Positions 10,092 through 54,315 of a DNA stretch of 54,367 nucleotides are shown one piece after another. Both the position numbers and the translations under genes were made by a program. Every line of letters begins with the position of its first letter. The first letter of the stretch is position 1. The notes beneath the pieces were generated by a model. That model did not search any database and was not told the DNA's origin. It saw only the letters and a list, made by a program, of their open reading frames with translations. The stretch spans positions 1-54,367 of the IMG/VR virus record IMGVR_UViG_3300020591_000121. The stretch is one strand, 5' to 3'. Origin of the DNA: a virus (taxonomy: Duplodnaviria > Caudoviricetes).

Positions 10092-10510
10092 AGCATCGCT
10101 CCCTGTCCGACGACAGTGGCGGCGCGGGTGCGCCAGCAGGTGTCGAGCCCGTCCAGAAGCCGCTCCAGTCCATCGCGGGCGCGATCAATCTCGCCGCGCT
10201 TGAGCAGAGCACGGACGCAGGCAAGGCTTTCGACTTCGGCATCGCCGACGGGATGCGCTTCGAGTTCTTCGATTTGATCCTTGAGTTCGCCGACCTTGGT
10301 TTCGAGACGGTCGGCCTTCGCCTCTAACTGTCCGATCTCGTTCTGAGCCTTGCTCAGGTCTTCTTCGCTCTCTTTCAGGGCGCGCTCGGTCAGGTCGAGT
10401 TCGCTGCGCAGCGTCTCGACGAGCTTCTCGGTATTCGCCAACATCGCGCGCAGATCGGCGACGCTATCGGTCGTCTCGGCGTTCAGAAGTTGTGCTGCAT
10501 TCCCCGACAT
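10088..10510 (-). CDS. Hypothetical coiled-coil protein
   Basis: Heptad-rich sequence from MSGNAAQ; RBS GAGGGG. Confidence 0.7.
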   Translation of the reverse strand: MSGNAAQLLNAETTDSVADLRAMLANTEKLVETLRSELDLTERALKESEEDLSKAQNEIGQLEAKADRLETKVGELKDQIEELEAHPVGDAEVESLACVRALLKRGEIDRARDGLERLLDGLDTCWRTRAATVVGQGAML

Positions 10511-10565
10511 AGAACGTCCCCCTCGGGTCAGATACGCAGGCACGCGGTAGTGGATGGCGCAGGCG

Positions 10566-11669
10566 TCAGCCGCCGATGCGCATCGGCATGACGACCATGA
10601 GCTGCTGCGGGACCGCCTCAGACGTGAAGACGACGGCTGTGACTTCATTCGCGATGTGGAGCTCTAGCGGGACATCGCCGAACACCTTCGTCACTGTGCC
10701 GACGTACGAGGCGTTCATGCCTACGAATTTGCTGGCATCACGAACGTCAGCATCGAGGATCTCATGTGCCGCATCGAAACCGTTGCCCGACGCTGAGATC
10801 GACAGCCCGCCATCGCCGGCCGCGAATTTGATGGACACGGCCGATTTGCCGTCGTCACCGGCGCGATGCGCGCGCTCGACAGCAGCGGCCAACGGAGCAG
10901 CCTCAACGACGATGGATGCGCCATTGTAGCGGGGGATGACGCGCTGATAATCTGGATAGGTGCCATCGACCAAGCGCGACATGATCTCTGCGTCTGCGGT
11001 GGTGACGGCGATCCGCTCATCGGAAACGCGGACCTCGACCGTTCCCTTCTTGAGCAAGCCCGCGATAAGGCTGGCGGTCTTGGTCGGGACGATGATGGCG
11101 GGCATACGTTCGGCCCCGGCGGGCAGGGGCAGGGTGCGTTTACTGAGGCGATGACCATCCGTCGACACCGCCACGAGGTCGCCGCCATTGGCATGCAGAT
11201 AGACGCCGTTGAGGTAATAGCGGGTTTCTTCTGTGCTTACCGATGGCAGTGTGGCTACCAGCATGGCGCGGAAGTCGGCTGCATCGATCGGAAATGCCAC
11301 GCCATCGAATGGCGCCATGGCTGGAAAGTCGTCAGCCGGCAGCGTCTGCAGGCGATAGCGCGCGCGTCCGGATTTGACTGCCAGCAGGTTGTCATCGTGC
11401 TCGATCGAGACCGTCGAGCCTTTCGGCAGGCCATTGACGAGACCGTGCAGCATCCGGCCATTCACGGTCGTGAGGCCGGGATGATAAATCTCCGCCGCCG
11501 CGCTTGCTGAGCACTCGGCGTCCATTGACGACGCGCGCACCGATACCCGGCCGTCTTCGGCCCGCAGCAACACGTGGCGCAGCACCGGGATGGTGGTCCG
11601 ATCGAGGGAGCAGTCCTTTACCGCCGCGAGTATGTCGACGAGAGCCGACGTTTCCATCGTGAGTTTCAT
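10566..11669 (-). CDS. dnaN: DNA polymerase III beta sliding clamp homologue (phage-encoded)
   Basis: 367 aa; TIPVL, STEETRYYLNGVY, VSTDGHRL, SRLVDGTYPDYQRVIP, C-terminal VVMPMR. Confidence 0.93.
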   Translation of the reverse strand: MKLTMETSALVDILAAVKDCSLDRTTIPVLRHVLLRAEDGRVSVRASSMDAECSASAAAEIYHPGLTTVNGRMLHGLVNGLPKGSTVSIEHDDNLLAVKSGRARYRLQTLPADDFPAMAPFDGVAFPIDAADFRAMLVATLPSVSTEETRYYLNGVYLHANGGDLVAVSTDGHRLSKRTLPLPAGAERMPAIIVPTKTASLIAGLLKKGTVEVRVSDERIAVTTADAEIMSRLVDGTYPDYQRVIPRYNGASIVVEAAPLAAAVERAHRAGDDGKSAVSIKFAAGDGGLSISASGNGFDAAHEILDADVRDASKFVGMNASYVGTVTKVFGDVPLELHIANEVTAVVFTSEAVPQQLMVVMPMRIGG

Positions 11670-12586: not shown

Positions 12587-13566
12587 TAGGCGGCCACCTT
12601 CTCGCTGTAGCTCTCGACGCCGGGCACGCTGGTGCCGGCCTTCGCCTGGGCGAAGCAAACCTTCTCGACGGCCTCACGGATTGTCGGATGGTCTTTGCAA
12701 TGGGCGAGCGCAGCGGCGTAGTCCGTGACGCGGAACTTCGTGATCTCGCGAAGGCCCGTTTTCCGCCCGCGCTGGCCACCCGCCTGCACACGAACCGGCT
12801 CGACGGGAGGAAGCGTCATCGGTTCGGGTTCGGGCGAGGACAGAGCCAGCGCGGGGTCGGTATCCATGAGCTTGGCGCGTTCCGCAGCCATGCGAGCGTT
12901 TTCCGCTGCGATGCGCTCTTCCTCGGCTTTGCGCTTGGCGGCGGCCTCTGCGCGCAACTTCGCGTCTTCCTCGCGCATGTATACGGTGAGGGCATCGCGC
13001 AGCTCGTTCGCTGCGGCGTCCGCTTCTTCGATCAGCGGCTTGAATTTGGCGTCAACCGCGCGAGAGGCGTCGAGGTGCGGCTGCTTCTCAGTCACGCGGT
13101 CGGCGTCTGCGCGCTTCTTGAGATCAAGCAACTTGGCGCGCATGTTGGCCACGGTATCTTTGCCGGTGCCGTCCTTGATGCCGTGCTTGCGCAGCCAGCC
13201 GAGCGCCATCGTGGCGTACTCTCTGATCTGCTCGGCCAGCGAAAGATCGCCGCTGTTGTCGCCAATGCCGGGAACCTCCGGCGCGTCACCTTCCCAGGCA
13301 TTGCCGTTGGAGAAGGCGCGCATCGCCGCTTCTTTCGTCACCGGTTTGTCGGCGCAGTAGGTCCAGACCTCGGTGGCGGGCCGGTACGTCTTAGTGGCGC
13401 CGATCAGCGCCACGAGCGCGCCATCCTTCACGTAGATACAGACGGGGAGGAACGGCCCATCCTTGTGCTGACGCATGCGGTAGTAGCCTGCATGCGGCTG
13501 GTCGGCATGGATCGGCGGCATCTTGCCGGCGAGCGCGTCATTCCAATAGGTCAAGTCGTTGCTCAT
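12586..13566 (-). CDS. Hypothetical recombination-module protein (coiled coil)
   Basis: 326-aa ORF coupled to the annealase gene. Confidence 0.75.
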   Translation of the reverse strand: MSNDLTYWNDALAGKMPPIHADQPHAGYYRMRQHKDGPFLPVCIYVKDGALVALIGATKTYRPATEVWTYCADKPVTKEAAMRAFSNGNAWEGDAPEVPGIGDNSGDLSLAEQIREYATMALGWLRKHGIKDGTGKDTVANMRAKLLDLKKRADADRVTEKQPHLDASRAVDAKFKPLIEEADAAANELRDALTVYMREEDAKLRAEAAAKRKAEEERIAAENARMAAERAKLMDTDPALALSSPEPEPMTLPPVEPVRVQAGGQRGRKTGLREITKFRVTDYAAALAHCKDHPTIREAVEKVCFAQAKAGTSVPGVESYSEKVAA

Positions 13567-14811: not shown

Positions 14812-15603
14812 CTATGGGGCGGAGAACCGGTAGTTGATGCCGACGCGCACGGACTGCAGCGTCATCTCGCTATCGAAGCTGTCGGACTGGTAGCGATAGA
14901 CACCCGATCCCGGGCTCGTTTCATCGGCCGGCGCGCCGCTCAATGCGGTGCCGACGAACTGATGGTTCTGCCGTCCGAGATCGACGTAGAGATATTCGCC
15001 CTTGAGGCTCCACCCGCCGCCCAACGCCCACTCGGCGCCGGCGCCGGCCGACCAACCGAAATGGCTCTCGGTCGCTTCGCCCGTGGCCCATGGGGTCACC
15101 GGGCAGCCGACACATGCGACGCTGTTCTCCGATGTCGAGCGCGCCCATGCCGGCCCTGCTGTTCCGTAGATCAGGAGAGGGCCAGCAACGAAGCCGAGCC
15201 GCCCGCGCAAGGTGGCGAGCGAGTGAATGTCGCTGGTGATGTTCCAGGTGGTGAAACCGTCGGCAGTGGTGAAAGCGCCGCTGGCGTCTCCATCGATGTG
15301 GGCGATGTCCGCTTCGATCCCGAGGACGATGGCGCCGACCTGATGGCTGTATCCGATCTGGACACCGCCGAGCCAACCGTCCGCATCGCTCAGATCGCGA
15401 TCGACCGAGCCAAAGACGTCGACGGCGGTGATGTTGGGGAATGCTGCATCGTTGTAGCCGAGGGCGCCGCTCGTCGAACTCGAGGCCCATCCACCATGCA
15501 GGCCGATGTAGAGGCCAGACCAATCGGCAGGGGCATCCTGAGCGGCGGCTGGCAAAGTGAGTGCCATTGCCGCGACGAAAACCGATGACGCCATCTTGCC
15601 CAT
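14812..15603 (-). CDS. Omp25/RopB-type outer-membrane beta-barrel protein
   Basis: Signal peptide; DWSGLYIGLHGGW, LRGRLG, GWSAGAGAEW, EYLYVDLG, VRVGINYRF. Confidence 0.9.
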   Translation of the reverse strand: MGKMASSVFVAAMALTLPAAAQDAPADWSGLYIGLHGGWASSSTSGALGYNDAAFPNITAVDVFGSVDRDLSDADGWLGGVQIGYSHQVGAIVLGIEADIAHIDGDASGAFTTADGFTTWNITSDIHSLATLRGRLGFVAGPLLIYGTAGPAWARSTSENSVACVGCPVTPWATGEATESHFGWSAGAGAEWALGGGWSLKGEYLYVDLGRQNHQFVGTALSGAPADETSPGSGVYRYQSDSFDSEMTLQSVRVGINYRFSAP

Positions 15604-15704
15604 GAAATCCCCCTGGTTGGCCGGGGTAGCGGCGGCGGACTGCCCTCTAGGTCGTCCGCCGCCTCCCCGCTTGCGCCGCTGCCGAAGCAGTGAGGCGATG
15701 GAGG

Positions 15705-15756
15705 AGTTAAAGCGCAGCTTGAATTATCAGTCAAGCACATTTCAAGCTGCGCTTAA
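15705..15756 (-). promoter_or_regulatory. pL promoter with OL operators
   Basis: Minus-strand TTGACT-N17-TTTAAC; operators TAAAG-N5-CTTGA (15708-15722) and TCAAG-N5-CTTAA (15742-15756). Confidence 0.7.
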
Positions 15757-15784
15757 AACTTTTTTAGGGGCCTAGGGGGGGCGC

Positions 15785-16423
15785 TTACCGGCGCCGAGGC
15801 TGGGTGTGCTCGCTGACGACGCCCTCGATTGCATCCTGACCAACGGTATACGTCGGCCATGGCGCATTTAACGGGCGCAGTTCGTAGAGCGGGTCCACGC
15901 CCGATCGCAATACATTGAGCTGACGGATTACCGGTAAATCTTCGCTCGGCACTACCGCAAGCACCATGTCCCCTGGTTCCGGTCGAATATCCGGATCGAT
16001 GATGAGGCTGTCCCCGGGCAGGTATTTTGGTTCGTTGGCGCGGTCGTGCACCAGCAATGAAAAGCTCTCCTCCGAGCACGGAAAATGAGACCTGACCCTT
16101 TCAACAAACATGCTCGTTATTGCACGGTTTTTGACTAACTCAATATTATATCTCGGCACGATCCGACCCCCGATTTCCCCGGTTTCAGTGATCGTACTGT
16201 TCTCGTTGTGTTCTGACAATTCGCCCGAGAGCAGCATGTGGATGTCGACGTCAAAGATCGATGCCAATTGGAACGCGCGCTTGTGATTTAGATCGACGCC
16301 CTTTTCCCAATTAGAGACCGCCTGAACGCTTACACCCGTGCGCTCAGCCACGACGCTCTGAGACCAGTCACGGTCCTTCCGAAGCGTCCTGATCAGCTTT
16401 CCAACACGCTTCCAGTCGACCAC
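15785..16423 (-). CDS. CI-like repressor (XRE HTH plus degenerate S24 domain)
   Basis: WSQSVVAERTGVSVQAVSNWE HTH; S24-like C-terminal domain; divergent from cro. Confidence 0.9.
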   Translation of the reverse strand: MVDWKRVGKLIRTLRKDRDWSQSVVAERTGVSVQAVSNWEKGVDLNHKRAFQLASIFDVDIHMLLSGELSEHNENSTITETGEIGGRIVPRYNIELVKNRAITSMFVERVRSHFPCSEESFSLLVHDRANEPKYLPGDSLIIDPDIRPEPGDMVLAVVPSEDLPVIRQLNVLRSGVDPLYELRPLNAPWPTYTVGQDAIEGVVSEHTQPRRR

Positions 16424-16439
16424 GGTTGCGGCACCATCT

Positions 16440-16503
16440 TATATTGGAAGGACGTCGCTATTCAAGTGCGGCTTGACAAAGTTCTAGTCGAGCCTGAATA
16501 TGA
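16440..16503. promoter_or_regulatory. OR region with pR/pRM
   Basis: Perfect TCAAG-N5-CTTGA at 16462-16476 overlapping TTGACA (16473-16478); degenerate TCTAG-N5-CCTGA at 16483-16497. Confidence 0.7.
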
Positions 16504-16507
16504 CCAC

Positions 16508-16732
16508 ATGAAGCGCAAGAGACATCGGGACGATGGACTAGCCAAGGCGATTAGCGCTGCGGGTTCAATATCCGCGCTGGCCAGTCACATCAAGGTCACG
16601 GTTCAGGCCGTTTCGCAATGGGAGCGGGTTCCTGTGGAGCGCTGCCCCGCCGTGGAAAAGGCTACGGGCATACCGCGCGCTGAACTTCGTCCTGATTTTT
16701 TCGCTGACGATCGAGAAGTGAGGGCCGCATGA
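16508..16732 (+). CDS. Cro/YdaS-like regulator
   Basis: SALASHIKVTVQAVSQWERVP...LRPD; recognition helix VQAVSxWE shared with CI. Confidence 0.85.
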   Translation: MKRKRHRDDGLAKAISAAGSISALASHIKVTVQAVSQWERVPVERCPAVEKATGIPRAELRPDFFADDREVRAA

Positions 16733-17154
16733 CCGACACACCTCACATCAGCGCTATCAATGCAAACCTCGGCACCGTGCGCGCGGGACTCCTGCGGGAC
16801 GACGATGCGCGCGCTCGCATGCATCGCGCGCGCTGCGGGCGCTATCGCAAAGCCGTCTACAGCACGCGCACGGAGACGCTTCCCGACGGCAGCAAGCGCA
16901 TCGCCGAAATCTTCACCGACCTGATGGACGCCGACGGCAACGGCATTCGTGTCTATTGGGCCGAAGTCGTCAGTGCTCCCGGCGAGCCATTGCGCACCGT
17001 TATCTTGATCGACCGGAGGGACGAATTCTCTGAGGTGCCGGGCGCTCAAACGCCGCTCTTAGATGACGGCAGTCCGTCCACATCCGCGCCGGTGCCGCCT
17101 CGCAGTCCGCAGGCAGCGCCTGATGCGTCGAGTGCCGCGACCCGTAAACCGTAA
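16729..17154 (+). CDS. Hypothetical protein (cII position)
   Basis: ATGA-coupled to cro. Confidence 0.55.
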   Translation: MTDTPHISAINANLGTVRAGLLRDDDARARMHRARCGRYRKAVYSTRTETLPDGSKRIAEIFTDLMDADGNGIRVYWAEVVSAPGEPLRTVILIDRRDEFSEVPGAQTPLLDDGSPSTSAPVPPRSPQAAPDASSAATRKP

Positions 17155-17203
17155 GCGTCAGCTCAAACCCGCAATGCGGGCACACGTAGGTTTCAGTCGC
17201 CAT
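17000..17203 (-). CDS. Possible antisense small Cys-rich (Zn-ribbon-like) protein
   Basis: MATETYVCPHCGFELTL...C...DCRHL; GGAGA RBS upstream. Confidence 0.35.
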   Translation of the reverse strand: MATETYVCPHCGFELTLTVYGSRHSTHQALPADCEAAPARMWTDCRHLRAAFERPAPQRIRPSGRSR

Positions 17204-17413: not shown

Positions 17414-18037
17414 ATGATTATTGGGGGCTTTCATTCTCGTCTGTTTGGTCCGTCGCGCTCTGAAACGCGGGCGGCGGTAGAGGGTTATCGCGATCTTCTG
17501 CGCGAGAGCATCCCCGGGGAGACGTTCCCCGTCACCGATCTGGCGCGGGACTACGAGGACGCCCGGCAGAAGCACGGCTGGCCGCCGCTCGATGCGACGA
17601 CGCTGCTGCGTGAGCTGGAGGCCCTCGGCATTCGCCAGTTCATGGCCATCAAGGTGCCGTGGGCGGTGAACGGTTCGCCACCGCCCGTTGCCCTGCCGAA
17701 GCCGGCCGAACCGGAAGGCCGCTTCGAATTCGCCGAACCCGCAGCCGAACCGTTCGAACCCGAACCGGTCATGGCTTCGGTTCGCCCTCTGCGAACGGTT
17801 CGGATCGTCAATTCGGGAAAGGTCTCGAAGGCCGAAGCGCTCGCCGACCTGCAGGCGCGCCTGGCGCGCGGCGAGACCATCCCCTCACAGCAGGCGCTCG
17901 CGGAGAGCTGGGGCCGCGCCGAGGGCACGGTGAGCGACTGGATGTCGGCATGGCGCCGCGCGGGGCTCATCCCGCAGCCGGTGCGGGACTGGCGCTCGAA
18001 CAGCTATCGCCTGCCGAACAGCGCGAGGGCCGCATAG
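17414..18037 (+). CDS. Soluble DNA-binding protein with C-terminal HTH (paralogous domain to 24635-25699)
   Basis: C-terminal SQQALAESWGRAEGTVSDWMSAW HTH; Pro/Glu linker encoded by a DNA palindrome cluster. Confidence 0.75.
   Translation: MIIGGFHSRLFGPSRSETRAAVEGYRDLLRESIPGETFPVTDLARDYEDARQKHGWPPLDATTLLRELEALGIRQFMAIKVPWAVNGSPPPVALPKPAEPEGRFEFAEPAAEPFEPEPVMASVRPLRTVRIVNSGKVSKAEALADLQARLARGETIPSQQALAESWGRAEGTVSDWMSAWRRAGLIPQPVRDWRSNSYRLPNSARAA
17668..17802. repeat. Intragenic GAAC-N-GTTC palindrome cluster A
   Basis: GAACGGTTC 17668-17676, CGAACCGTTCG 17746-17756, CGAACGGTTCG 17792-17802, plus several CGAAC/GTTCG half sites. Confidence 0.85.
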
Positions 18038-18340
18038 ATGCTCACGCACCAGCAGCGCGAAGTGATGCTGTTCGTTGAAGCCCATCAGGCGCGCACGGGC
18101 GGGGTCTCGCCGTCGCTTGCAGAGATCGCAGAGCATTTGCATCAGCGCAGCCGGTCGAATGTCGAGCGTCTGCTGGTGGGCTTGGAGCAGCGCGGGTTCA
18201 TTCGCCGGCTGCCCCGCGCTGCGCGGGCCATTGAGGTGTTGAGGCCAGTGAGCAGGTTCGCGTTTCACCGCTTTGATGCGGAGACGAAGCAGTTGCGTCC
18301 GTTTGCGTCCCCAAAAACGAAGGAAGCCTCGGAGGGCTAA
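18038..18340 (+). CDS. LexA DNA-binding-domain-only protein
   Basis: MLT..Q...FV......G.SPS..EI...L...S.S.V.RL...LE.RGFIRRLP..ARAIEV resembles the alphaproteobacterial LexA N-domain; no peptidase domain. Confidence 0.8.
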   Translation: MLTHQQREVMLFVEAHQARTGGVSPSLAEIAEHLHQRSRSNVERLLVGLEQRGFIRRLPRAARAIEVLRPVSRFAFHRFDAETKQLRPFASPKTKEASEG

Positions 18341-18478
18341 TCCGAGGCTTCGATACGGTTTCAAATCGGGTGCTTCGGGTCGGTTGGCGCCGACGTGGAA
18401 GCTGAAAGGATGCGAAGTGTTTATACGCCTTACGCAGCGCGCCTGCAATAGCTTGCAAGTAACTTTTCGGGGGCTGGC

Positions 18479-19918
18479 ATGCTGAACAGCCTCACGAAGC
18501 AGGAGATTGGCGTACCCGACGCCGAGATGCGTCAGCCGCCGTTCAATCTCGAGCTCGAGCAAGCCCTGCTGGGTGCGCTGCTGATCAACAACGCCACCTA
18601 TGAGCGTGTGGCAGGCATCATCGACGGGCAGCACTTCTTCGACAGCCTGCACGCGCAGATCTTCGATGTGATCGCCGACCTCGCCGGAAAGGGGCGCGCA
18701 GCGACGCCTCTCACGCTGCGGACCTATTTCGAGGATGCGCCGGACATATCTGCTGGCCTCACCGTGCCCCAGTACCTCGGCACGCTCGCCAGCAAGGCGA
18801 CGACGGTCATCAACGCGGTCGACTACGCCCGCGCCATCGTCGATCTCTCCACCCGCCGCGCGCTGATCGTCATCGGCGAAGACGTCGTCAACAGCGCCTA
18901 TGACGCCTCCGCGACCATCGCCCCGCAATCCCTCATCGAGGATGCCGAGGCGCGGCTATTCGAGATCGCGGAGAAGGGTCGCAACATCCGCGACGAGATC
19001 ATGTTCGCGGACGCCTCGCTGCAGGCGGTGAAAAGCGCGAACGATGCATACCGGAGCGGCGGGCGCATGCGCGGGCTGTCAACGGGGTTTGAAGACCTCG
19101 ACAACAAGCTCGGCGGGCTCCAGCAGTCCGATCTCATCATCCTCGCCGGCCGCCCCTCGATGGGCAAAACGGCGCTCGCCACCAACATCGCCTATAACGT
19201 TGCGCGCCAAGGCCTTGCCGTCGATTTTCGCTCGCTGGAAATGAGCGCCGAGCAATTGGCGTTGCGCATCCTCTCCAGCGTCTCGGGCATCCCCAGCGAG
19301 AGGCTGCGCCGGGGGGATTGCAGCGAAGACGACATGCGCAGGCTCATCGAGGCACAGCGCAAGATCGCCGACACGCCCCTGATCACCGACGAGAGCGGCG
19401 GCCTTTCCATCGCCCAGCTAGCAGCGCGGGCCAGGCGCACCAAGCGCAAGCACGGAACGGAACTAATCGTCGTCGACTACCTGCAGCTCATGGCGGGCAA
19501 CAAGCGCGCGCGCGACGGGCGGGTGCAGGAGGTTACGGAGATCACCACCGGCCTCAAGGCGCTCGCCAAAGAGCTGCAGGTACCGATCATCGCGCTGTCG
19601 CAGCTCAACCGCTCCGTCGAGGGGAGGACGGAGAAGCGACCGCAGCTTTCCGACCTCCGCGAGTCGGGATCGATCGAGCAGGACGCCGATATCGTGCTCT
19701 TCGTCTACCGCGAGGAGTACTACGTCGAGCGCCAGCAGCCCGATCCGTCGGACATGGAGAAGACTGCCGAGTGGATGCGGAACATGGAGCGCGTCGCCGG
19801 CAAGGCCGAGGTCATCCTCGGCAAGCAGCGCCACGGCCCCACGGGCGTCGTGCAGATGGCTTTCGACGGCAAGCTGACGCGGTTCTCCGATCTGGCGCGG
19901 GAGTATGCCTCGCCATGA
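18479..19918 (+). CDS. dnaB: Replicative DNA helicase (phage-encoded)
   Basis: PPFNLELEQALLG, AGRPSMGKT, SLEMS, VDYLQL, LSQLNR, DLRESGSIEQDAD, KQRHGPTG. Confidence 0.96.
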   Translation: MLNSLTKQEIGVPDAEMRQPPFNLELEQALLGALLINNATYERVAGIIDGQHFFDSLHAQIFDVIADLAGKGRAATPLTLRTYFEDAPDISAGLTVPQYLGTLASKATTVINAVDYARAIVDLSTRRALIVIGEDVVNSAYDASATIAPQSLIEDAEARLFEIAEKGRNIRDEIMFADASLQAVKSANDAYRSGGRMRGLSTGFEDLDNKLGGLQQSDLIILAGRPSMGKTALATNIAYNVARQGLAVDFRSLEMSAEQLALRILSSVSGIPSERLRRGDCSEDDMRRLIEAQRKIADTPLITDESGGLSIAQLAARARRTKRKHGTELIVVDYLQLMAGNKRARDGRVQEVTEITTGLKALAKELQVPIIALSQLNRSVEGRTEKRPQLSDLRESGSIEQDADIVLFVYREEYYVERQQPDPSDMEKTAEWMRNMERVAGKAEVILGKQRHGPTGVVQMAFDGKLTRFSDLAREYASP

Positions 19919-21120
19919 GCAACTTCGGGCACAATAGCGGCGATACGCTGGATGACGATTTGGATACGCGCCCTGGTGACTGGATCGCACTGTCTCGCAA
20001 GGTGCGTGAGCATCCCGTCGTAGGGCTCGGAAACCCCGTGAAACCGGCCGACCCAAAGCGGGGATCGTGTAGCCGTTTCGAGGCGTGGTTCGACCTGCTT
20101 TGTCTCGCGCAATGGAAGCCGTCGCGCATCAACAACAAGGGCCAAGTTATCACCCTCGACGTGGGGCAGCTGATGGGTGCTCTGCCGTTTTTGGCCGATC
20201 GGTGGAATTGGACCGTTGCGGCGGTGCGCTGGTTTTTATCCACACTGGAGCGCGAAGAGATGATCTCTCGCGCATCACCAAACACAGTGGATCACGACAG
20301 CCGCAACAGCAGGCAACCAACAAACAAGTGCAACGTCATAACCATAAGGAATTACAGCAGATATCAGCTTCTTGCCGAGGCTGTTGACGCCTACGTACAG
20401 CAGGCAAAGCAGCAGGCGAACGACAGCCGCACAGCAGCCGAGCAGCAGGCCAACAGCAGCAACTTAACACTTAAACACTTAAACACAGACTCTCCCCCCT
20501 TCCCCCCTCCGGGGGGCGACGACGTGAAGACGCGCCGCAAGGCAGAGAAGGCGGCAGAGACGCGCAAGCGCAAGGCCGAGCGTGCGCAAGTCTGCGACGA
20601 GGCCTTCGATGTCTACAACAAGGCCGCCGCGCATTTCGGCTTCTACGCATGCGAGAGCCGCACCGACGAGCGGCGAGCAAGGATGCTCAAGCGCCTCGAC
20701 GCGATCGGCGGCATCGAACGTTTCCGCGTTGCGCTTCGGCAAGTCGGCAAGGACGAGTTCCTGTCGGGTCGCGCCCCTGGCCGCGACGGCAAGCCGTTCC
20801 GTCTCGACATCGACCGGCTGCTCTCGACTGGTAGCGGATTGGGCGATGTCCTGGCGCGGTTGCTTGACCTGGCCACCGATGTGGACATGACGGGCCCCAA
20901 CGGTAAACGCTGGGGATGGTGGCGCGGCAAGGAGGCCGAGTTCCGGTCGCTCCCGCTAGACTACTGGCGCCGCCTCGACGCCGATCAAAAGCCAAACGGC
21001 ACATGGCCATGGTGGGTCATGGGTGCACCTCCCGGTCATGAGGAATGCATGATGCCGGCGGAGCTGGTCGCGGAGCGGGGCTACACCGAAATCTACCAAG
21101 GGAAAATCACCCATGACTGA
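19915..21120 (+). CDS. Phage replication initiator (O-like)
   Basis: W..L.R, EAW.DL, GQ......LA.RW.W....V..FL..L, ITI.NY..YQ wHTH pattern; internal repeats. Confidence 0.75.
   Translation: MSNFGHNSGDTLDDDLDTRPGDWIALSRKVREHPVVGLGNPVKPADPKRGSCSRFEAWFDLLCLAQWKPSRINNKGQVITLDVGQLMGALPFLADRWNWTVAAVRWFLSTLEREEMISRASPNTVDHDSRNSRQPTNKCNVITIRNYSRYQLLAEAVDAYVQQAKQQANDSRTAAEQQANSSNLTLKHLNTDSPPFPPPGGDDVKTRRKAEKAAETRKRKAERAQVCDEAFDVYNKAAAHFGFYACESRTDERRARMLKRLDAIGGIERFRVALRQVGKDEFLSGRAPGRDGKPFRLDIDRLLSTGSGLGDVLARLLDLATDVDMTGPNGKRWGWWRGKEAEFRSLPLDYWRRLDADQKPNGTWPWWVMGAPPGHEECMMPAELVAERGYTEIYQGKITHD
20293..20488. repeat. Probable replication origin (iteron-like repeats plus AT-rich tandem)
   Basis: Repeated CAGCAGGC and ACGACAGCCGCA, followed by ACTTAAC-ACTTAAAC-ACTTAAAC, inside the initiator gene. 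Confidence 0.55.
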
Positions 21121-21706
21121 GTTGTTCGACCGGCTTCTCTCGAGCGGCAACGCGCTCCTCATCGACATCCTGGAGTGTGCATTCGATGCGATTGGCCCCA
21201 AGGACAAGTACGGATCTCCCATAGAGGTGGCCTTTGCAGCGGCCACGCATGCCCTTTGCACTACGCGTTTTCAGGATGAAGTCGGATACGTCGCTGAGTT
21301 TGGCCTCACGCACCGGCAGTTGTGTGAGCGCCCTATGGAGGGGCGTCAATTCGCTGCCGTCGCGCCGCAGGTTCAGATTGGACTCTCCCGCGTCGATTTT
21401 CTGATCGTTCATCCTCGCGGCTTGAGCGGGCTTGGTGGTGTGGTCATCGAAGTCGACGGCCACGACTTCCACGAGCGAACGAAAGAACAGGCTCAGCGTG
21501 ACAAGGCTCGCGATAGAGAGCTTCAGGATCGGGGATTTCGCGTCTTCCGCTTCACGGGCAGCGAGGTTTGGCGCGATCCGTTCTCATGCGCGCAAGACGC
21601 GATAATGCACGCTCATTCTGTGTCGATTGATGCCTTGCATGCCCGCCACCTAATGAGCGTCGGCGATATCAATGGCGCGAAGAGAGCACTGAGTTGGATG
21701 CACTAA
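21113..21706 (+). CDS. DUF559-like PD-(D/E)xK endonuclease
   Basis: RVDF, IEVDGHDFH, RDKARDRELQ..G..VFRFTGSEV. Confidence 0.85.
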   Translation: MTELFDRLLSSGNALLIDILECAFDAIGPKDKYGSPIEVAFAAATHALCTTRFQDEVGYVAEFGLTHRQLCERPMEGRQFAAVAPQVQIGLSRVDFLIVHPRGLSGLGGVVIEVDGHDFHERTKEQAQRDKARDRELQDRGFRVFRFTGSEVWRDPFSCAQDAIMHAHSVSIDALHARHLMSVGDINGAKRALSWMH

Positions 21707-21724
21707 TAGCTTACGGGAAACGAA

Positions 21725-21889
21725 ATGCAGCAGACCAAGGCAAAAATCACCGACCGCGAGCGCGATGAAATGCGCAAGTTGCGCAAGCTGGGCTGGTCGG
21801 TGAACGGCCTTGCGCGGCGCTACGGGGTCGACGTCGAGCAGGTCTATCGCGAATTGGGCGAGCAATCACCGCGCTCGGCCGCGGCTTAA
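21725..21889 (+). CDS. Small HTH protein (54 aa, not in ORF track)
   Basis: GWSVNGLARRYGVDVEQVYREL. Confidence 0.6.
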   Translation: MQQTKAKITDRERDEMRKLRKLGWSVNGLARRYGVDVEQVYRELGEQSPRSAAA

Positions 21890-21898
21890 GGGGGAACC

Positions 21899-22897
21899 AT
21901 GGGGGCGAAGCGCAAACTCACGACGGAAGAACGCCAGGCACAGCGCCTGCGCGTCATCCGCAACCGGACGTACAAAACGCTGCGGGACGAACTGGGGATC
22001 GACGTCGATGTGCTCGTCGCCGATGACAAGGCGGCCTTGGCGCAAGCCGAACGCAACGTCGCGAAGCTGCGACAGGTCGGGCAGCGGATGCGAATGGGGC
22101 AATCCCCCACAGCGCCGACACCGGAACGGCGGCGGCATGCCACGGCTGCGCCGCGCACGATCGAGATCAGTCCGGCGCAGCCGGTGGCGCACCGGTTCGA
22201 GTGGCCATTGGAGACGATCCGCGACCGGCTCACGAGCTATCAGTTCGAGGCAGCCGAACGGCTGCGCGCCGCCTACCTCGACATGCAGCCACGCTCAGCG
22301 GTCGCGGACACGACGGGAGCGGGCGGAGCCTCCGATCCGTCGGGGCGACTGGCGATCACCGAGCAGATGGAATTTGCCTCGCGCGAGTTCCACTGGATCG
22401 TTGGCCGGCTGGATCGCTCGATGCGCCGCATCGTGGAGAACTTCATCCTCGAAAGTGTACCCCACGGCCGCGAGCGGTGCCTCACCATTGCCGAGTACGG
22501 CAACAAGCTCTCCGGCATGGGCGGGCAGAACCAGGGTCGCGCGGCGGGCCTCACCGCCATCATGCTCACATGCGACCGGCTCGGCTATCTCTGGCACGAC
22601 TACGATGGCTGGAAGCGCGAGCAGTGCCTCAGGACCGATCGCATGATGCACAGCGAGATCGGACAACGGGCGGGACGGCAGGGGTGGATCGTTGCGCTGT
22701 GGGCGTTCTGCCATCGCCACCATCGGCTTCCGAACCTTCAGGGTGAAATCGACGAAATCCGCAACTGTCACGACCGGGAAGCATTGCGCCTGCGCAACGC
22801 GCCGCCGATGGAGCTCGAGCGCTACCACCGTCGCCGGGACCGTCTGACGGGCATTGCTTTCCGTGACAGCGACGAGCGCGTGAGGGTGGTGGCATGA
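21899..22897 (+). CDS. Hypothetical protein, possible late-gene regulator (DUF6456-like)
   Basis: LTSYQFEAAERLR motif; position downstream of the replication genes. Confidence 0.5.
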   Translation: MGAKRKLTTEERQAQRLRVIRNRTYKTLRDELGIDVDVLVADDKAALAQAERNVAKLRQVGQRMRMGQSPTAPTPERRRHATAAPRTIEISPAQPVAHRFEWPLETIRDRLTSYQFEAAERLRAAYLDMQPRSAVADTTGAGGASDPSGRLAITEQMEFASREFHWIVGRLDRSMRRIVENFILESVPHGRERCLTIAEYGNKLSGMGGQNQGRAAGLTAIMLTCDRLGYLWHDYDGWKREQCLRTDRMMHSEIGQRAGRQGWIVALWAFCHRHHRLPNLQGEIDEIRNCHDREALRLRNAPPMELERYHRRRDRLTGIAFRDSDERVRVVA

Positions 22898-23133
22898 CAA
22901 CGGTTGCCGAGCATCCGCGGCTTGACGATCACCAGCTTCCGGCTCCGCTTGTGGACGCATTCGCACAACTGCTCTGGATCCGGCTCCGGCCGTACCTTGC
23001 ACTCGGCCCGAGCGGCCGTGCGGGTATCTGGCGGTGCGACTTCGACGATTTACCTGACATGGCCAAGGCACCGCTGCAGCTCGCCGCACGCGATGTGCTG
23101 AAGGCAACCATCGTAGGGAGCGGTGTGCAATGA
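22894..23133 (+). CDS. Hypothetical protein
   Basis: ATGA-coupled. Confidence 0.55.
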   Translation: MTTVAEHPRLDDHQLPAPLVDAFAQLLWIRLRPYLALGPSGRAGIWRCDFDDLPDMAKAPLQLAARDVLKATIVGSGVQ

Positions 23134-23366
23134 GAAACGACCGAGACTGGCGCGCCATCGACCGGCAGCGGCGCGCGGATGATTGGCGCTACGCTGGCGA
23201 GTTCTTTCTGTGGCCGCTCTGGGCGATAGGAGCGGTTATCACCATGGCGATGGTTGGCGCCGTCGTCATCCTTATCGCAGCCTGCGCTGTGTTGGTGCGG
23301 ATGCTGCCGTGGATCGTTGCCATGTTCGCGGCGATCATCCTCGCTCGATGCGCGGGGGTGCTGTAA
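23130..23366 (+). CDS. Small membrane protein
   Basis: Two hydrophobic segments; coupled. Confidence 0.6.
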   Translation: MRNDRDWRAIDRQRRADDWRYAGEFFLWPLWAIGAVITMAMVGAVVILIAACAVLVRMLPWIVAMFAAIILARCAGVL

Positions 23367-23752
23367 TGCGAGTGCTCGTCTGCGGCGGTCGAAACTACGC
23401 CGACAAGGCCAAGGTCTATGCCACGCTCAATGCGCTTTGTCTCGATCGCGGCATGAAGGGTGACGAGGACGCCTACGGCAATTGGATGCCGAAAGACATG
23501 CGGATCATTCACGGCGGCGCCCCCGGCGCCGACGCTCTGGCCGACGATTGGGCCGTCGTGAATTGGGTCCCGGTCGACGAGTTCAAGGCCGACTGGACCA
23601 TGCATGGCCCTGCTGCTGGCCCCATTCGAAATCAACACATGCTTGACGAGGGTAAGCCCGACCTCGTTGTGGCGTTTCCGGGCGGGCGCGGAACGGCCGA
23701 CATGGTGCGCCGAGCGCGCGATGCTGGCGTCGAGGTGATCGAGATAGGATAA
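23366..23752 (+). CDS. SLOG-family (YspA/DUF2493-like) protein
   Basis: VLVCGGRNY, IIHGGAPGAD, AAGPIRNQHML, AFPGGRGTADM. Confidence 0.85.
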   Translation: MRVLVCGGRNYADKAKVYATLNALCLDRGMKGDEDAYGNWMPKDMRIIHGGAPGADALADDWAVVNWVPVDEFKADWTMHGPAAGPIRNQHMLDEGKPDLVVAFPGGRGTADMVRRARDAGVEVIEIG

Positions 23753-23764
23753 CGGAGAGATTCA

Positions 23765-24019
23765 ATGACCAAGCTCTCTTACGCGTGGGATGCGTTTCTA
23801 GTGGCGTTGATCATCGGCGGGTGGTTTGCCCTCTGCACGGCGCTCGTTGGCGCTCTGCGGGCCGCTGGCTTCGATCTAGAGGGGTGGCAGGGCACAGCGG
23901 TGATCCTTGCTGCGCTCGGAGCCATTCTCGGTGCCGCGCTGCGCATGGTGCGCGTGCGGGCGTACGATGCCGGTTTCGACCGCGGCCGTGATGGCGAGGC
24001 GGACGAGGCGCCGTTCTGA
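23765..24019 (+). CDS. Small 2-TM membrane protein
   Basis: GGAGA RBS; two hydrophobic helices. Confidence 0.6.
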   Translation: MTKLSYAWDAFLVALIIGGWFALCTALVGALRAAGFDLEGWQGTAVILAALGAILGAALRMVRVRAYDAGFDRGRDGEADEAPF

Positions 24020-24060
24020 GTTTCGTTCTTGAAAACAGGAAACGCAAGCTAGGAGGCCCC

Positions 24061-24555
24061 ATGCGCACCATCATCATCCTTGCCGCTCTCGCGGTGCTGT
24101 TTCCAACCGTCAGCCATGCCGAAGACTGGTCGCTGAGCACCTGGCAGCAGGGCCCGCGCTCGCCGTCTGCCTACGGGCACGCCAACAGAGCCAAGCCGAA
24201 GTGGCGCGCAACCGTACACCGCAGGAAACACCGGGAAGCACAGCCGCAAGAGAAGCAAGAGGTTCGGCTCTACCGGGCAGAGGATAAACCGCTTCCCGAG
24301 GGCGTAACATGCCAGCCCCAGGTGAGAGGGCTGGGAACCCAGTGGGTGGGGGAGCAGGGCGCACTCGATGCCGCCAAGAAAGATTGGATGGAAAGAGTGC
24401 GCTATGACCTGGGGGAATCCTACCTCGACATGGCGAATGCCCGCGATTTCGTCTCCCGTTGCGGGCGCGTGTCCATCGGTGAGGCGTTGGGGCAGGTGAT
24501 GTATCGCTGCGAGATCAAAGCACAGCCTTGCAAGGGCGTGTTCGCGGCGAAGTAG
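24061..24555 (+). CDS. Exported hypothetical protein
   Basis: AGGAGG RBS; signal peptide ending SHA; four Cys. Confidence 0.7.
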   Translation: MRTIIILAALAVLFPTVSHAEDWSLSTWQQGPRSPSAYGHANRAKPKWRATVHRRKHREAQPQEKQEVRLYRAEDKPLPEGVTCQPQVRGLGTQWVGEQGALDAAKKDWMERVRYDLGESYLDMANARDFVSRCGRVSIGEALGQVMYRCEIKAQPCKGVFAAK

Positions 24556-24576
24556 GACACCTAACGGGGTAGCAGG

Positions 24577-24609
24577 AAAAAGCCCCGGCAGCCGTGAGGC
24601 CACCGGGGC
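24577..24609 (-). terminator. Intrinsic terminator for the antisense cassette
   Basis: GCCCCGG/CCGGGGC stem with an A5 tract on + (U5 on -). Confidence 0.6.
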
Positions 24610-24634
24610 AGATGAAACATGCAGAACTTGCAGG

Positions 24635-25699
24635 TTACGCGGTCGCGAGCGCTTTGCATCGGCCTTGCTGGGTTCGGGCAGGGACCAGGCCCGACCGTTC
24701 CCACTCGCGGATCCACTCCGACATCGTCGATTTGGCGACGCCGTACCGTTCGCGCAGCTCGTCCTGGGAGCCGAACCGTTCGCCGAGGGCAAGGCGCGTC
24801 ACCAGATCGGCGGCGGCCTCGTCCTTCGTGTAGCCGCCACGGCCAGGGCGGTTCGGACGTTTAGGCGAACCGTTCGGCTGGCGAACCGTCTCTCCACCCC
24901 CGTTATCCGAACCGTTCGGCTGCGGGGCCGGCGAGGCGAACCGTTCGCGAAGCTCCGTCAGTTCGGCATCCGAAACCGAATTCAGTTCGGATGTCGGCTT
25001 CAGTTCGGCTTTCGCTTGCCGCTTCGGGCTGAACGCGAACCCGAACGAGACGATGGTGCCGAACTCGAGGAACAGGGTGGTGAAGAATGGGGCCAGCAGA
25101 ATGGCCAGCGCCCGAACCTGATCCTTGTCGTAACCGAGCGCCGCCGCGACATTGGCGAACTGTTCGGCCTCGGCTGAGACCGGCTTGGCCGGTTCGAGAA
25201 CCTGCAGCCGGGCTTCGAGGCCCTTCAGCGAGTTCTCATAGAAGGCGGCTGTCGCCTTCTTCGCCTTGCACTTCGGCCCGTCACCGCCGGCACACTCAGT
25301 ATCGCGGGCTTCGCGCTTGGCCCTGACGGCTTCGCGCTCGGCGGCGATCTGCGCTTCCAGATCGAGACGCTGGGCCACGAGCTGGTCGTGCTCGACGCCG
25401 GAGACGAGGGTCTTCTCTGCCTGGCGGCCGACACTGGAATAAACAACAAGCCCGGTGCCGGCGAGGAAGAGGGCCGTAAAGCCGAGGACCGACAACCAGT
25501 GGCGTTGACGGCGGGCCATATCGGCAAGGTGGCCGACCATCAGCGTGCCGGAGACGGTGACGAGGGTGAGCCAGTGCTTGAGCGTGATTTCCGCCCCGTG
25601 CATGAGGACGTCCTCGAAGAGGATCGCCAGCGTGCCTGAGGCGAGAACGACGCCCGCCGCGATTGCAAGGCCGCGGCCGGCCGTGTTAGAGTTCGTCAT
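24635..25699 (-). CDS. Membrane-anchored DNA-binding protein: 3 TM, coiled coil with Cys pair, TM, linker, HTH
   Basis: Four hydrophobic helices; ECAGGDGPKC hairpin; C-terminal SQDELRERYGVAKSTMSEWIREW HTH; AGGAAGGA RBS. Confidence 0.85.
   Translation of the reverse strand: MTNSNTAGRGLAIAAGVVLASGTLAILFEDVLMHGAEITLKHWLTLVTVSGTLMVGHLADMARRQRHWLSVLGFTALFLAGTGLVVYSSVGRQAEKTLVSGVEHDQLVAQRLDLEAQIAAEREAVRAKREARDTECAGGDGPKCKAKKATAAFYENSLKGLEARLQVLEPAKPVSAEAEQFANVAAALGYDKDQVRALAILLAPFFTTLFLEFGTIVSFGFAFSPKRQAKAELKPTSELNSVSDAELTELRERFASPAPQPNGSDNGGGETVRQPNGSPKRPNRPGRGGYTKDEAAADLVTRLALGERFGSQDELRERYGVAKSTMSEWIREWERSGLVPARTQQGRCKALATA
24742..25166. repeat. Intragenic CGAAC-N-GTTCG palindrome cluster B
   Basis: CGAACCGTTCG at 24772, 24866, 24908 and 24937; CGAACTGTTCG at 25156; one-mismatch copy at 24742; many half sites. 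Confidence 0.9.
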
Positions 25700-25780
25700 A
25701 GCAATGTTCCTTCCTAGGGTTCGTTGCGGTTTCAGAGCCCGGAGCGGTTGCCGCCTCTCCGGGCTTTTGCGTTTCTGATG

Positions 25781-25847
25781 GGCCTCATCAGCGAGGGCTT
25801 GACCCTCGGACCATCGCCGCCCCGTGTGAGGCGGCGAGGTTTCGGCC
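25781..25847 (-). ncRNA. Type II hammerhead ribozyme
   Basis: GGCC-GAAA-CC[UCGCCGC..GCGGCGA]UG-GUC^-CGAGGG(UCAAG)CCCUCG-CUGAUGA-GGCC: full core and three stems; predicted cut between 25809 and 25808. Confidence 0.88.
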
Positions 25848-25848
25848 T

Positions 25849-25974
25849 TTAGTTCGGGCGCTTCCGCTTCAGTTCTTCACGGATCGCGCTGACAACCATC
25901 CAGGTGATGCCGATGGCGGTGGTGACGAGGAGTACAATCCCGAAGATGTTGCCGGCCAGTTCTGCGTTAGACAT
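25849..25974 (-). CDS. 41-aa single-TM peptide (not in ORF track)
   Basis: MSNAELAGNIFGIVLLVTTAIGITWMVVSAIREELKRKRPN; GGAGA RBS; basic C-tail. Confidence 0.7.
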   Translation of the reverse strand: MSNAELAGNIFGIVLLVTTAIGITWMVVSAIREELKRKRPN

Positions 25975-26015
25975 TTGCTTTCTCCATGTGTTTCCAGCAC
26001 TTGGCTGATGGAGTT

Positions 26016-26119
26016 AATATGGCATATGCGTATATACGCGGCAATACTCGACGCAACTTATCCCCTGTAACAATCTTCAAATGTTCGTGAATTGACGTGT
26101 TGGCCCGTGTATATACGTT
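26016..26119. promoter_or_regulatory. Divergent promoters, each containing a GTATATAC palindrome
   Basis: Minus TTGCCG-N17-CATATT with GCGTATATACGC (26028-26039) in the spacer; plus TTGACG (26092) with GTATATAC (26109-26116). Confidence 0.6.
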
Positions 26120-26126
26120 GGAGTTC

Positions 26127-26279
26127 ATGGAAAAGCGCAAGGCGATCTCGCTGAAACTACCGCCAGAGCTGCTCGACAAGCTCGACGACTACCGCAAGCG
26201 CCAGCCGCACGAGCCCACGCGAACGCAGGTGATCGAGGATGCGATCCGGGCTATCGTCGAGAAGGGGAAGCGCAAATGA
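26127..26279 (+). CDS. Ribbon-helix-helix (CopG/Arc-like) regulator
   Basis: KAISLKLPPELLDKLD...TRTQVIEDAIRAIV. Confidence 0.8.
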   Translation: MEKRKAISLKLPPELLDKLDDYRKRQPHEPTRTQVIEDAIRAIVEKGKRK

Positions 26280-26755
26280 GATGGCTGGTCGCGCTCGCTG
26301 TGTTGATCGGCGCCATCGGTCTGATCGCCACCACCGACCCTCATCGGCCGTCGTCGAGGCCCACCCCGTCAGTGGACGAGAACGCCAAACTCGATGCGGA
26401 AATAGCGCACGCCCTCAAGACGACTGGCGTATATGTGCCGAAGAACGCACGGAAGGCGCCGCCACCCTCTGAAGTGGATCGTGTCAAGATCACCGATTTC
26501 ACTTGGGGCAAAACGGGCTTCGGCAGTGTGATGGAGGCGAGTTTCACCGTGCGCAATTCGTTGCCCTATGCGGTCAAAGACATTGCGGTGAAGTGCAGTC
26601 TGCACGGCGAGAGCGGCACCGAAATTGGTAGGGCGGCCAGGACCATTTACAGGCGCTTCCCACCCGGCGCTACGCGCGTAAAGGACTTCAGCATGGGGTT
26701 CATCAATGATCAGGCCCGGGGCGCGTGGTGCGAGGTTGTTGGGGTACAGAAGTGA
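26276..26755 (+). CDS. Membrane-anchored/exported protein with Ig-like beta domain
   Basis: N-terminal hydrophobic anchor; FTVRN...VKDI.V.C...G.SGT.IG pattern; ATGA-coupled to the RHH gene. Confidence 0.7.
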   Translation: MRWLVALAVLIGAIGLIATTDPHRPSSRPTPSVDENAKLDAEIAHALKTTGVYVPKNARKAPPPSEVDRVKITDFTWGKTGFGSVMEASFTVRNSLPYAVKDIAVKCSLHGESGTEIGRAARTIYRRFPPGATRVKDFSMGFINDQARGAWCEVVGVQK

Positions 26756-26782
26756 CGTAGCCAAGGATGGATCGGAGCAGCG

Positions 26783-27085
26783 ATGAGCGGCGTTGATGCC
26801 TTAGCTGAGGGCTTTTACTGGGTTCTGATGCGAACCGGGGAATGGTCGGTCGCGCAGGTCGACTTTATTGGCGATAGCGATGACGAAAAAGGCGATGCGT
26901 CTGCGTGGAGTTGGTCTGCCATCGGCAGCGAGGAGCCATGGGCGCTTGAGGACTTCGCGGAAATCGGCCCACGCATTGAGCCGCCCGACGACAGGTCACC
27001 CCTGTTGCCCGAGGACGGACTTTTGAACGTGCTCGAAGAGAAGCCGCCATCTACGGATCCTATCATTTGGGGCAAGAAGAAGTAG
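26783..27085 (+). CDS. Acidic Trp-rich hypothetical protein
   Basis: GGAG RBS; EGFYWV...W..IG......EIGPRIEPP. Confidence 0.6.
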   Translation: MSGVDALAEGFYWVLMRTGEWSVAQVDFIGDSDDEKGDASAWSWSAIGSEEPWALEDFAEIGPRIEPPDDRSPLLPEDGLLNVLEEKPPSTDPIIWGKKK

Positions 27086-27117
27086 GCGTGGCGAAGGATA
27101 AGCTGGAGGGGAGATAG

Positions 27118-27323
27118 ATGTCGGACGGCCCAGATAAATACGCATCCGCGATCGCGGCAAATGTAGCCTTGGAGTGCTGGTGAAGACGCTAGTCGCAAGC
27201 AAAGCGGTTGATAAATTCAAGTTCGATCAGGCGCTTGCTGACGCTCTGCGGCGACTGAATGCGTCAGACGATGCCGCGCAGCACGAGGCAGCTAAGGCAC
27301 TCCAAGCTATCTATTGGCGGTGA
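27118..27323 (+). pseudogene. Possible frameshifted small gene
   Basis: Strong RBS and ATG but stop after 21 codons; the -1 frame continues about 50 helical codons to TGA 27323. Confidence 0.35.
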
Positions 27324-27367
27324 GTTGTTTCACGCGTGAAACAGGATAGAGCCTAGGAGACCGGGAA

Positions 27368-27604
27368 ATGCCGCGAGACGACCAAAGCCGCCTAGGCGGA
27401 CTGCAATCGACCCTGGACGATGTGTTCGCCGTGGTGCGCAGCGTCGCCGAGTTGCAGCCCGCGTATGCGAGCGAAACGGACGGCTCGCTGTTTTGCTTCT
27501 TCTGCGACAAGCACATTGCTGGGGCGCCAGACGAGCAGCTTCTCGCGCACAATCACGAGCTGACGTGCCCATGGGTGCAGGCGCAGCGCTTGGCCCGGAA
27601 GTGA
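27368..27604 (+). CDS. Small putative Zn-binding protein
   Basis: AGGAG RBS; CFFC...H...CPW. Confidence 0.55.
   Translation: MPRDDQSRLGGLQSTLDDVFAVVRSVAELQPAYASETDGSLFCFFCDKHIAGAPDEQLLAHNHELTCPWVQAQRLARK

Positions 27605-54240: not shown

Positions 54241-54315
<75 letters not shown>

Follow-up and report, generated by a model that had tools for sequence, protein, structure and literature searches.

Why do two genes of one phage, whose products share only a C-terminal DNA-binding tail, each carry an array of the same palindrome within the coding sequence? This question is raised by the IMG/VR virus record IMGVR_UViG_3300020591_000121 (Duplodnaviria; Caudoviricetes), a single contig of 54,367 bp, which we analysed over its full length and call the window. 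By its gene layout, the window reads as a temperate phage. The two genes, designated A and B, encode a soluble protein of 207 residues and a membrane protein of 354 residues, and both open reading frames (ORFs) are as described in the initial annotation of this DNA (Table 1). That annotation had proposed that the helix-turn-helix (HTH) tails of the two proteins bind the palindromes and that B holds DNA at the membrane. We found that the arrays are under selection at the DNA level, that they recur in relatives of B, and that the half-site and the recognition helix of the tail change together. Loci of relatives are numbered L001 to L056.

In the window, 10 copies of the palindrome GAACNGTTC (GAAC-N-GTTC) were counted; 100 dinucleotide shuffles gave 0.75 ± 0.83, with a maximum of 3, and none reached 10. 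Eight of the 10 copies are inside the two genes, at 17668, 17747, and 17793 in A and at 24773, 24867, 24909, 24938, and 25157 in B, as the initial annotation had noticed; the other two are isolated (6991 and 44806). All seven copies of the 11-bp form, CGAAC-N-GTTCG, are found in the two genes, two in A and five in B (24772-24782, 24866-24876, 24908-24918, 24937-24947, and 25156-25166). CGAAC/GTTCG half sites have a mean density of 1.08 per 300 bp in the window, with unique peaks of 10 around A and 16 around B; the sole other stretch with at least six half sites per 300 bp is 44565-44878. Array A contains 10 half sites in all within 17673-17802, and its 520-bp segment ranks fourth of the 203 in the window.

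The excess was also observed when the proteins were kept constant. In the codon nulls, the protein sequence was fixed and synonymous codons were either resampled or permuted, 2000 times each. The three full sites of A compare with null means of 0.18 and 0.26 (0/2000 for both nulls), and the five of B with 0.47 and 0.76 (0/2000 and 1/2000, respectively). For half sites, 12 were counted in A against 4.1-4.6, and 23 in B against 7.8-9.7 (0/2000 each). The sites of A fall into three reading frames (VNGS, AEPFE, and RTVR) and those of B into two (PNGS twice; AEQF, RERF, and GERF), again as previously noticed. The enrichment is upheld by all three nulls. In a comparison of the window, L003, and L004, the full sites were better conserved than the remaining DNA in the 3' part of B, with variation in 3/55 columns versus 108/511 (Fisher p 0.004). 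When only third codon positions were counted (3/20 versus 61/169), this was a trend (p 0.08). The arrays are thus under selection as DNA.

Of the 8000 candidates that were scored in the search for relatives, 146 were homologs of B (E <= 0.001), and a few of these bear Hyphomicrobium names. A profile of the tail matched 677 clusters at 50% identity, 319 of them at E <= 1e-10, and in the best 150 of the 677 the tail domain is almost always C-terminal. According to a crude scan of the listed matches, 84 of the 98 proteins longer than 260 residues have at least three hydrophobic segments, 12 have one or two, and two have none, and 36 of the 52 proteins of up to 260 residues have no hydrophobic segment. 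Two matches to the profile, P0140 and P0132, have an unusual architecture in which a related HTH unit is repeated in tandem six or seven times, in one of them behind an ankyrin-like region. A tblastn search of the 'phages' collection with A and B gave no match, no relative was found in scans of genome contigs, and the A8 scan of viral contigs found nothing.

We then counted arrays in the last 520 bp of the membrane gene, dropping duplicate or near-identical loci (L006, L007, L011, L012, L021, L038, and L045) and short or cut loci (L015, L016, L018, L022, L028, L029, L050, and L055). An array was found in 14 of the 17 distinct loci that combine this tail with the membrane module. In the window, L003, L004, and L033, four to six sites of the CGAAC-N-GTTCG type stand in this 3' part; L005 has one full site and 14 half sites there, and L008 and L034-L037 have four to seven GGAC-N-GTCC. 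The last 520 bp contain 14 CGGAC half sites in L039; L032 has 10-11 CGAAGC/GCTTCG words, including two palindromic forms (p 1e-9), L013 has GGAAAC and AACCGTT words, and L056 has 12 GCAACC/GGTTGC. Within its own locus, this 3' segment ranks first in the window, L004, and L013, second in L005, third in L003 and L008, and first in all seven of the loci added later (L033-L037, L039, and L056). Synonymous-permutation nulls for 11 further genes gave 0/1000 in nine, 2/1000 in L039, and 6/1000 in L032; the sites in these genes are in two to three frames and lie between residues ~230 and 336. In the 21-kb loci L034-L037, every GGAC-N-GTCC is inside the membrane gene (5/5, 6/6, 7/7, and 4/4, respectively).

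In other loci (L014, L017, L019, L040-L054, and others), the four-helix membrane module ends in a different DNA-binding tail, of which there are at least three types: a short HTH, a DUF7343/MarR-like tail, and a second tail that resembles a winged helix. Most of these loci have no array in the gene. Among 20 such loci, counted without de-duplication, the 3' segment ranks first in two (L040 and L052) and second to fourth in five (L027, L048, L014, L046, and L020, the last being second of only four segments). Since the same membrane module with other tails mostly lacks arrays, the arrays go with this tail, as expected if the tail reads them.

The half-site differs between groups of relatives, and the recognition helix differs with it. 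The helix KST[MA]SEW is found with CGAAC in five loci and K[RQ]R[VI]S[ED]W with CGGAC in another five; RSTMSDW (L039) is also found with CGGAC. PSRFSEW is paired with CGAAG in one locus, KSTVSKW with GAAAC in L013 (and weakly in L026), and KGSVSKW with CAACC in one locus. In three classes, a copy of the motif is located at the same codons of the turn between tail helices 1 and 2, which read GERF, GRSV or GRTV, and GETV. Because the arrays recur and helix and site change together, the tail domain most probably binds the intragenic palindromes, as the initial annotation had predicted; the arrays of the relatives stand at the same place, and the homolog comparison that it had suggested points in the same direction.

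BLASTP aligned residues 135-197 of A with residues 288-350 of B without a gap (27/63 identical, E 5e-13) and gave no other significant alignment, so that the two proteins share only about 65 C-terminal residues, in agreement with the annotated division into homologous tails and seemingly unrelated remainders. In AlphaFold 2 models, each tail consists of three helices and a beta hairpin, that is, a winged helix. In the model of A, a disordered linker (77-133) separates the winged helix (139-199) from an N-domain of four helices (6-70). The model of B (mean predicted local distance difference test score, 83) has helices at 4-27, 37-64, 68-97, 100-136, 142-167, and 192-222, of which the first three and the last are long and hydrophobic; a helical hairpin (100-167), predicted with high confidence, lies between hydrophobic helices 3 and 4, and the winged helix (292-351) follows disordered stretches at 232-235 and 263-287. 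The cysteines at the hairpin tip, C136 and C144, are invariant in 36 sequences. The model supports the earlier proposal that B is an integral (inner-)membrane protein with a cytoplasmic winged-helix tail, and the distribution of positive charges suggests a periplasmic hairpin, with the N and C termini both in the cytoplasm. The arrays coincide with the DNA coding the disordered linkers of A and B; further sites of B are in the segment before transmembrane helix 4 and, in one case, at the turn between tail helices 1 and 2. Disordered linkers tolerate such arrays, which fits this placement.

Neither protein matched a family above the cut-off in Pfam, PHROGs, NCBIfam, or PADLOC; weak matches to DUF4407 (0.0035) were under the cut-off. 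No ATPase family was found in B or in 36 relatives, and the model of B consists of helices and the winged helix. Foldseek searches of the PDB with A and B gave no match at E <= 0.001; the weaker matches were to generic coiled coils and winged helices, the latter at E > 0.02. The Atlas clusters nearest to B are unnamed and mostly viral, and the Atlas leads for the N-domain of A (EutC and Pox_D5) are low-feature matches, which we did not trust.

The best reading of these results, with a probability of about 0.5, is that B anchors phage DNA at the membrane by docking on its own gene. The winged-helix tail of B would bind the palindromes in the last third of its own coding sequence and, as B is predicted to be an integral membrane protein, such binding would dock the encoding DNA molecule at the inner membrane, whether this is a phage or a prophage. 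With sites inside its own gene, the binder would stay linked to them when mosaic phages recombine; each lineage has its private half-site. In this lineage, the early soluble protein A has a paralogous tail, and its linker DNA, 7 kb from array B on the far side of the replication genes, holds another array of this palindrome. A would therefore act on the same sites without a membrane anchor, possibly as a competitor, a releaser, or a second docking point. As the putative role of the system, we put genome keeping or positioning (stability or the site of replication) ahead of the exclusion of related phages, because arrays that only made a phage excludable should decay. A wider proposal can be offered only tentatively: a widespread class of phage genes in which a private palindromic 'address' within a membrane-anchor gene docks the genome, the addresses act as compatibility types, and early A undocks the DNA in some lineages. 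In the literature searched, the journal coverage of which is incomplete, we found no published description of a B-type family.

Several observations weigh against the anchor. Three of the 17 loci (L009, L010, and L026) have no array, and L005 has a single full site, the remainder being half sites. L026, a 95-kb contig, contains two tandem B-like genes (8493-9239 and 10001-11017), neither with a clear array. Of 606 control segments, 50 passed the same threshold, some of them being true repeats such as origin iterons. As the classes of helix and half-site are clades, their joint change represents about five events, not 17. The recognition helices of A differ from those of B, though both are paired with CGAAC, and A of L032 lacks an array while B of L032 uses CGAAG. 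The two PNGS units of B resemble one duplication, by which linker DNA can gain repeats. Finally, in a 5-N-5 palindrome the half-site centers are separated by only 6 bp, an unusual spacing for a dimer of winged helices.

The initial annotation had treated the soluble and membrane proteins as a pair. Only 11 homologs of A were found, and 16 stored proteins have its N-domain motif, FGPSR. In the contigs long enough for the check (the window, L001/L003, the contig of L031 and L005, and L032), a B-type gene lies 6-10 kb downstream of A in antisense orientation in all four; L002 and L030 end too early. Thus, the predicted co-occurrence holds from the side of A, but most B loci have no A: no A-type gene was found within 10 kb of B in L033-L037 and L039, and none in L008, L009, L010, L013, and L026. 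The membrane gene of L033-L037 and L039 has no such partner over +/-10 kb, and all the full palindromes of this stretch are inside it. A is an add-on of one sub-lineage, not half of a general pair. The CGAAC array in A is clear in the window, L002 (rank 2/17), and L030 (3/17), and weaker in L001 (6/37) and L031 (9/73). In the window, the start codon of the gene for a LexA-domain protein directly follows the stop codon of A, and such a gene follows A in all six A loci (the window, L001, L002, L030, L031, and L032). The recognition-helix region of this LexA-domain protein varies between phages.

In the rightward early arm, the order is cro-like gene, orf141, A, LexA-domain gene, DnaB, and DnaD-like gene (Table 1). 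B is antisense to its neighbors, between the early and late blocks; to the right, further small genes are followed by large rightward ORFs arranged like phage packaging and tail genes. The 41-codon ORF upstream of B may share an operon with it. An A+T-rich (G+C 0.35) divergent region with repeated ATATAC words (25996-26115), probably the control region of the cassette, separates the B operon from a small gene that runs rightward and weakly resembles YlcI/YnfO. Upstream of B, no Rfam hammerhead was found at the gathering score, and none at E <= 1 on 25600-26100 (501 bp). At its right end, the record has a tRNA gene (54244-54315, minus strand; 70.5 bits), a possible marker of the attachment site.

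Table 1. Positions of the genes, arrays, and other features in the window
Feature	Position	Strand	Remarks
Early arm, leftward		-	ORF layout
CI-like repressor	15785-16423	-	Faces Cro-like gene
Cro-like gene	16466-16732	+	Faces CI-like repressor
Gene A	17414-18037	+	ORF, 207 aa; soluble; rightward early arm
Array A	17668-17802		3 GAAC-N-GTTC and further CGAAC/GTTCG half sites
LexA DNA-binding-domain-only protein	18038-18340	+	100 aa; Pfam LexA_DNA_bind, 3.3e-12
DnaB	18479-19918	+	Rightward early arm
DnaD-like initiator gene	19924-21120	+	After DnaB
Candidate origin in DnaD-like gene	20306-20490		Repeats and A+T-rich stretch; not part of the A/B system
Intrinsic terminator directly 3' of B	24582-24609	-	12-pair stem with 10 G-C pairs, then T run
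Gene B	24635-25699	-	ORF, 354 aa; predicted membrane protein with winged-helix tail
DNA coding B winged-helix tail (aa 288-354)	24638-24838	-	One palindrome, at GERFG turn
Array B	24748-25196		5 CGAAC-N-GTTCG and ~11 further half sites
41-codon ORF upstream of B	25849-25974	-	Single-helix peptide; read from sequence

The rival that survives best, although we consider it unlikely, is an exclusion or incompatibility device, the trapping version of the initial annotation, in which B from a prophage would grip the arrays on incoming DNA of a like phage, the hold at the membrane would block its growth, and early A would free the phage's own DNA. The position of B suits this explanation: as in a moron, it is a stand-alone antisense unit with its own strong intrinsic terminator between the early and late genes, and the earlier description of a separate antisense unit was accurate. 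The neighbors of B are not conserved and the contexts are prophages (with a tape-measure protein, a P22-type portal, and a large polyvalent protein), some B-type genes being at prophage edges. In addition, the private specificities resemble immunity or incompatibility types, and a plasmid with extra lambda origin iterons excludes rep-lambda phages (PMC3349717). On the other hand, if their sole effect were to make a phage excludable, synonymous changes would erase the arrays at no cost, yet the arrays are conserved; no A-type gene stands within 10 kb of most B genes to release the DNA that encodes them; and searches with the PADLOC defence models gave no family for A, B, and six neighbors.

RNA data also touch on this rival. 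They consist of contigs from three metatranscriptome runs (three coded studies, possibly one campaign), from which no strand, level, or transcription can be read. Difference-free contigs match parts of 15389-17186, 24660-24895, 25717-25926, and parts of 25932-27594, and uncovered parts are uninformative; the second and third of these stretches would suit a B made by a prophage, though contigs do not show transcription. The cassette at 25932-27594 is matched by contigs of all three libraries, with the highest contig depth at 26812-27594. Expression of B in the lysogen, which had been proposed earlier, draws on the gene orientation, the terminator, and these few contigs, and is not supported in that form.

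Less probable still is a transmembrane transcription regulator, in which B would sense something in the periplasm through its hairpin and control promoters elsewhere, whether of the phage or of the host, and the sites in its own gene would serve only as a roadblock for self-limitation. Such regulators likewise join a membrane part to a DNA-binding domain (PMC10269533), and the invariant cysteines and the confidently predicted hairpin would suit a sensor. Clustered sites in phage DNA (the window and the loci of relatives) are found only in the membrane gene itself and in A. Against this reading, no further full site was found within +/-10 kb in L034-L037, and outside B the window holds only the sites of A and two single sites, about the chance level. 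Moreover, the fast change of specificity among related phages suits phage targets and not conserved host promoters.

It is also improbable, to a slightly greater degree, that the arrays are bound by another factor, such as the LexA-domain protein encoded next to A or the LexA of the host, or by none, as by-products of linker duplication. GAAC/GTTC is the alphaproteobacterial LexA half-site, the box being GTTC-N7-GTTC. The constant presence of the LexA-domain gene behind A favors the first version, and the seemingly duplicated PNGS units of B favor the second. However, the LexA box occurs once in the window (16199) versus 1.44 expected and is missing from the arrays; the arrays of L034-L037 have no LexA-domain gene within 10 kb, save a partial match in L036; and the LexA-like helices differ among the window, L030, and L031 while the motif is constant, so that they do not track it. 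We thus rejected the LexA reading. Simple duplication is unlike sites that are read in two to three frames and that lie within the conserved tail-coding DNA.

The least probable explanation is that A is a lambda-O-like initiator with its origin in array A, which was our own initial reading, and that array B is a second iteron field for copy control: A does lie between the cro-like genes and DnaB, with its sites in the DNA of an inter-domain linker as the lambda origin lies amid O (PMC7466680), but neither array has an A+T-rich stretch beside it (the lowest 40-bp G+C is 0.57 at array A and 0.53 at array B; 1st percentile of the window, 0.45), A has no initiator family or fold match, and better candidates exist after DnaB. 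The DnaD-like gene contains four ~17-nt ACAGCAGGC-type repeats (20306-20458) followed by an A+T-rich stretch (G+C 0.35), which carries CTTAAACA-type repeats. In L032, the initiator gene of which is 66% identical, the same repeats and an A+T-rich stretch are kept (12837-13030). L003, in which A is 91% and DnaB 93% identical, has another initiator in place of the DnaD-like gene, namely a phrog_270 'replication initiation protein' with four iterons of 33 bp (10152-10311); this is a textbook module swap. Considering these repeats and iterons, and the arrays without an A+T-rich neighbor, the origin is more likely to be inside the initiator gene after DnaB than in array A. The two arrays, at 17.7 and 24.9 kb, flank the replication genes, with the candidate origin at 20.4 kb.

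If the tail of B binds its own gene, a phage genome would have a simple, self-contained means to take a fixed place at the membrane. The system would then allow one to test the effects of membrane docking on phage maintenance, replication, or exclusion, and to test why binding sites stand inside coding DNA. Natural pairs of protein and site that are one base apart per half-site (CGAAC and CGGAC) would also allow a test of how winged-helix specificity evolves.

A binder with sites in its own gene is known already, and the earlier statement that no described system has this layout was too strong, as SpdA2/sps (PMC4170104) and TraB/clt (PMC4447253) precede it. SpdA2 of the Streptomyces plasmid pIJ101 has a 12-bp palindrome two to three times in its own coding region, which it binds in an electrophoretic mobility shift assay, and synonymous recoding of the sites lowers segregational plasmid stability (PMC4170104). 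Like B, SpdA2 and SpdA of other Streptomyces plasmids have a short palindrome repeated in or at their own coding region (PMC4170104 and PMC4447253), the sites are visible as a repeated peptide motif, and a role in plasmid stability or positioning has been proposed. The differences, compared by description only, are that SpdA2 has 135 residues, an N-terminal DNA-binding region, and, in the available part of the report, no description as membrane-anchored (PMC4170104); that it has two to three copies of one palindrome conserved across plasmids, whereas four to seven full sites plus half sites in private variants are found here; and that it belongs to actinomycete plasmids and not to phages of Gram-negative bacteria. 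No SpdA-named family was found for A or B in Pfam, NCBIfam, or PHROGs.

The clt locus lies at the end of traB. In TraB, as proposed here for B, a C-terminal DNA-recognition domain reads short, plasmid-private repeats in a cis locus of the same element (PMC4447253); however, TraB is an FtsK-like motor, whereas B has no ATPase domain, and clt consists of direct 8-bp repeats (PMC4447253). Lambda O and its origin resemble the present case in that the sites of a phage protein are amid its own gene and extra sites add residues (PMC7466680), but O is a soluble initiator whose iterons adjoin an A+T-rich stretch, as the arrays here do not. Intragenic sites that keep the binder and the address linked follow the same logic as O/ori and SpdA2/sps. 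The DNA binding of p16.7 of phage phi29 is not known to have sequence specificity. This phage integral membrane protein likewise brings phage DNA to the membrane, but it binds the terminal protein and displaced single strands and, in the available account, has no array in its own gene (PMC4974454). ToxR and CadC are also single polypeptides with a membrane part and a DNA-binding domain that act from the membrane, but on promoters of target genes (PMC10269533); the only clustered sites here are inside the coding sequence of the protein itself. In the AlpA/AlpC system of the Corynebacterium prophage CGP3, an adaptor binds a site by its own operon and positions phage DNA for replication; AlpA differs in linking the DNA to an actin-like filament from a site in the promoter region (PMC4446434), and no filament protein was seen here. 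What is new here is the four-helix membrane module with its predicted periplasmic hairpin, carriage by phages outside actinomycetes, four to seven palindromes per gene, five private specificities, and a soluble paralog with its own array. The system also links the SpdA/sps and TraB/clt layouts of Streptomyces with phages of Gram-negative bacteria.

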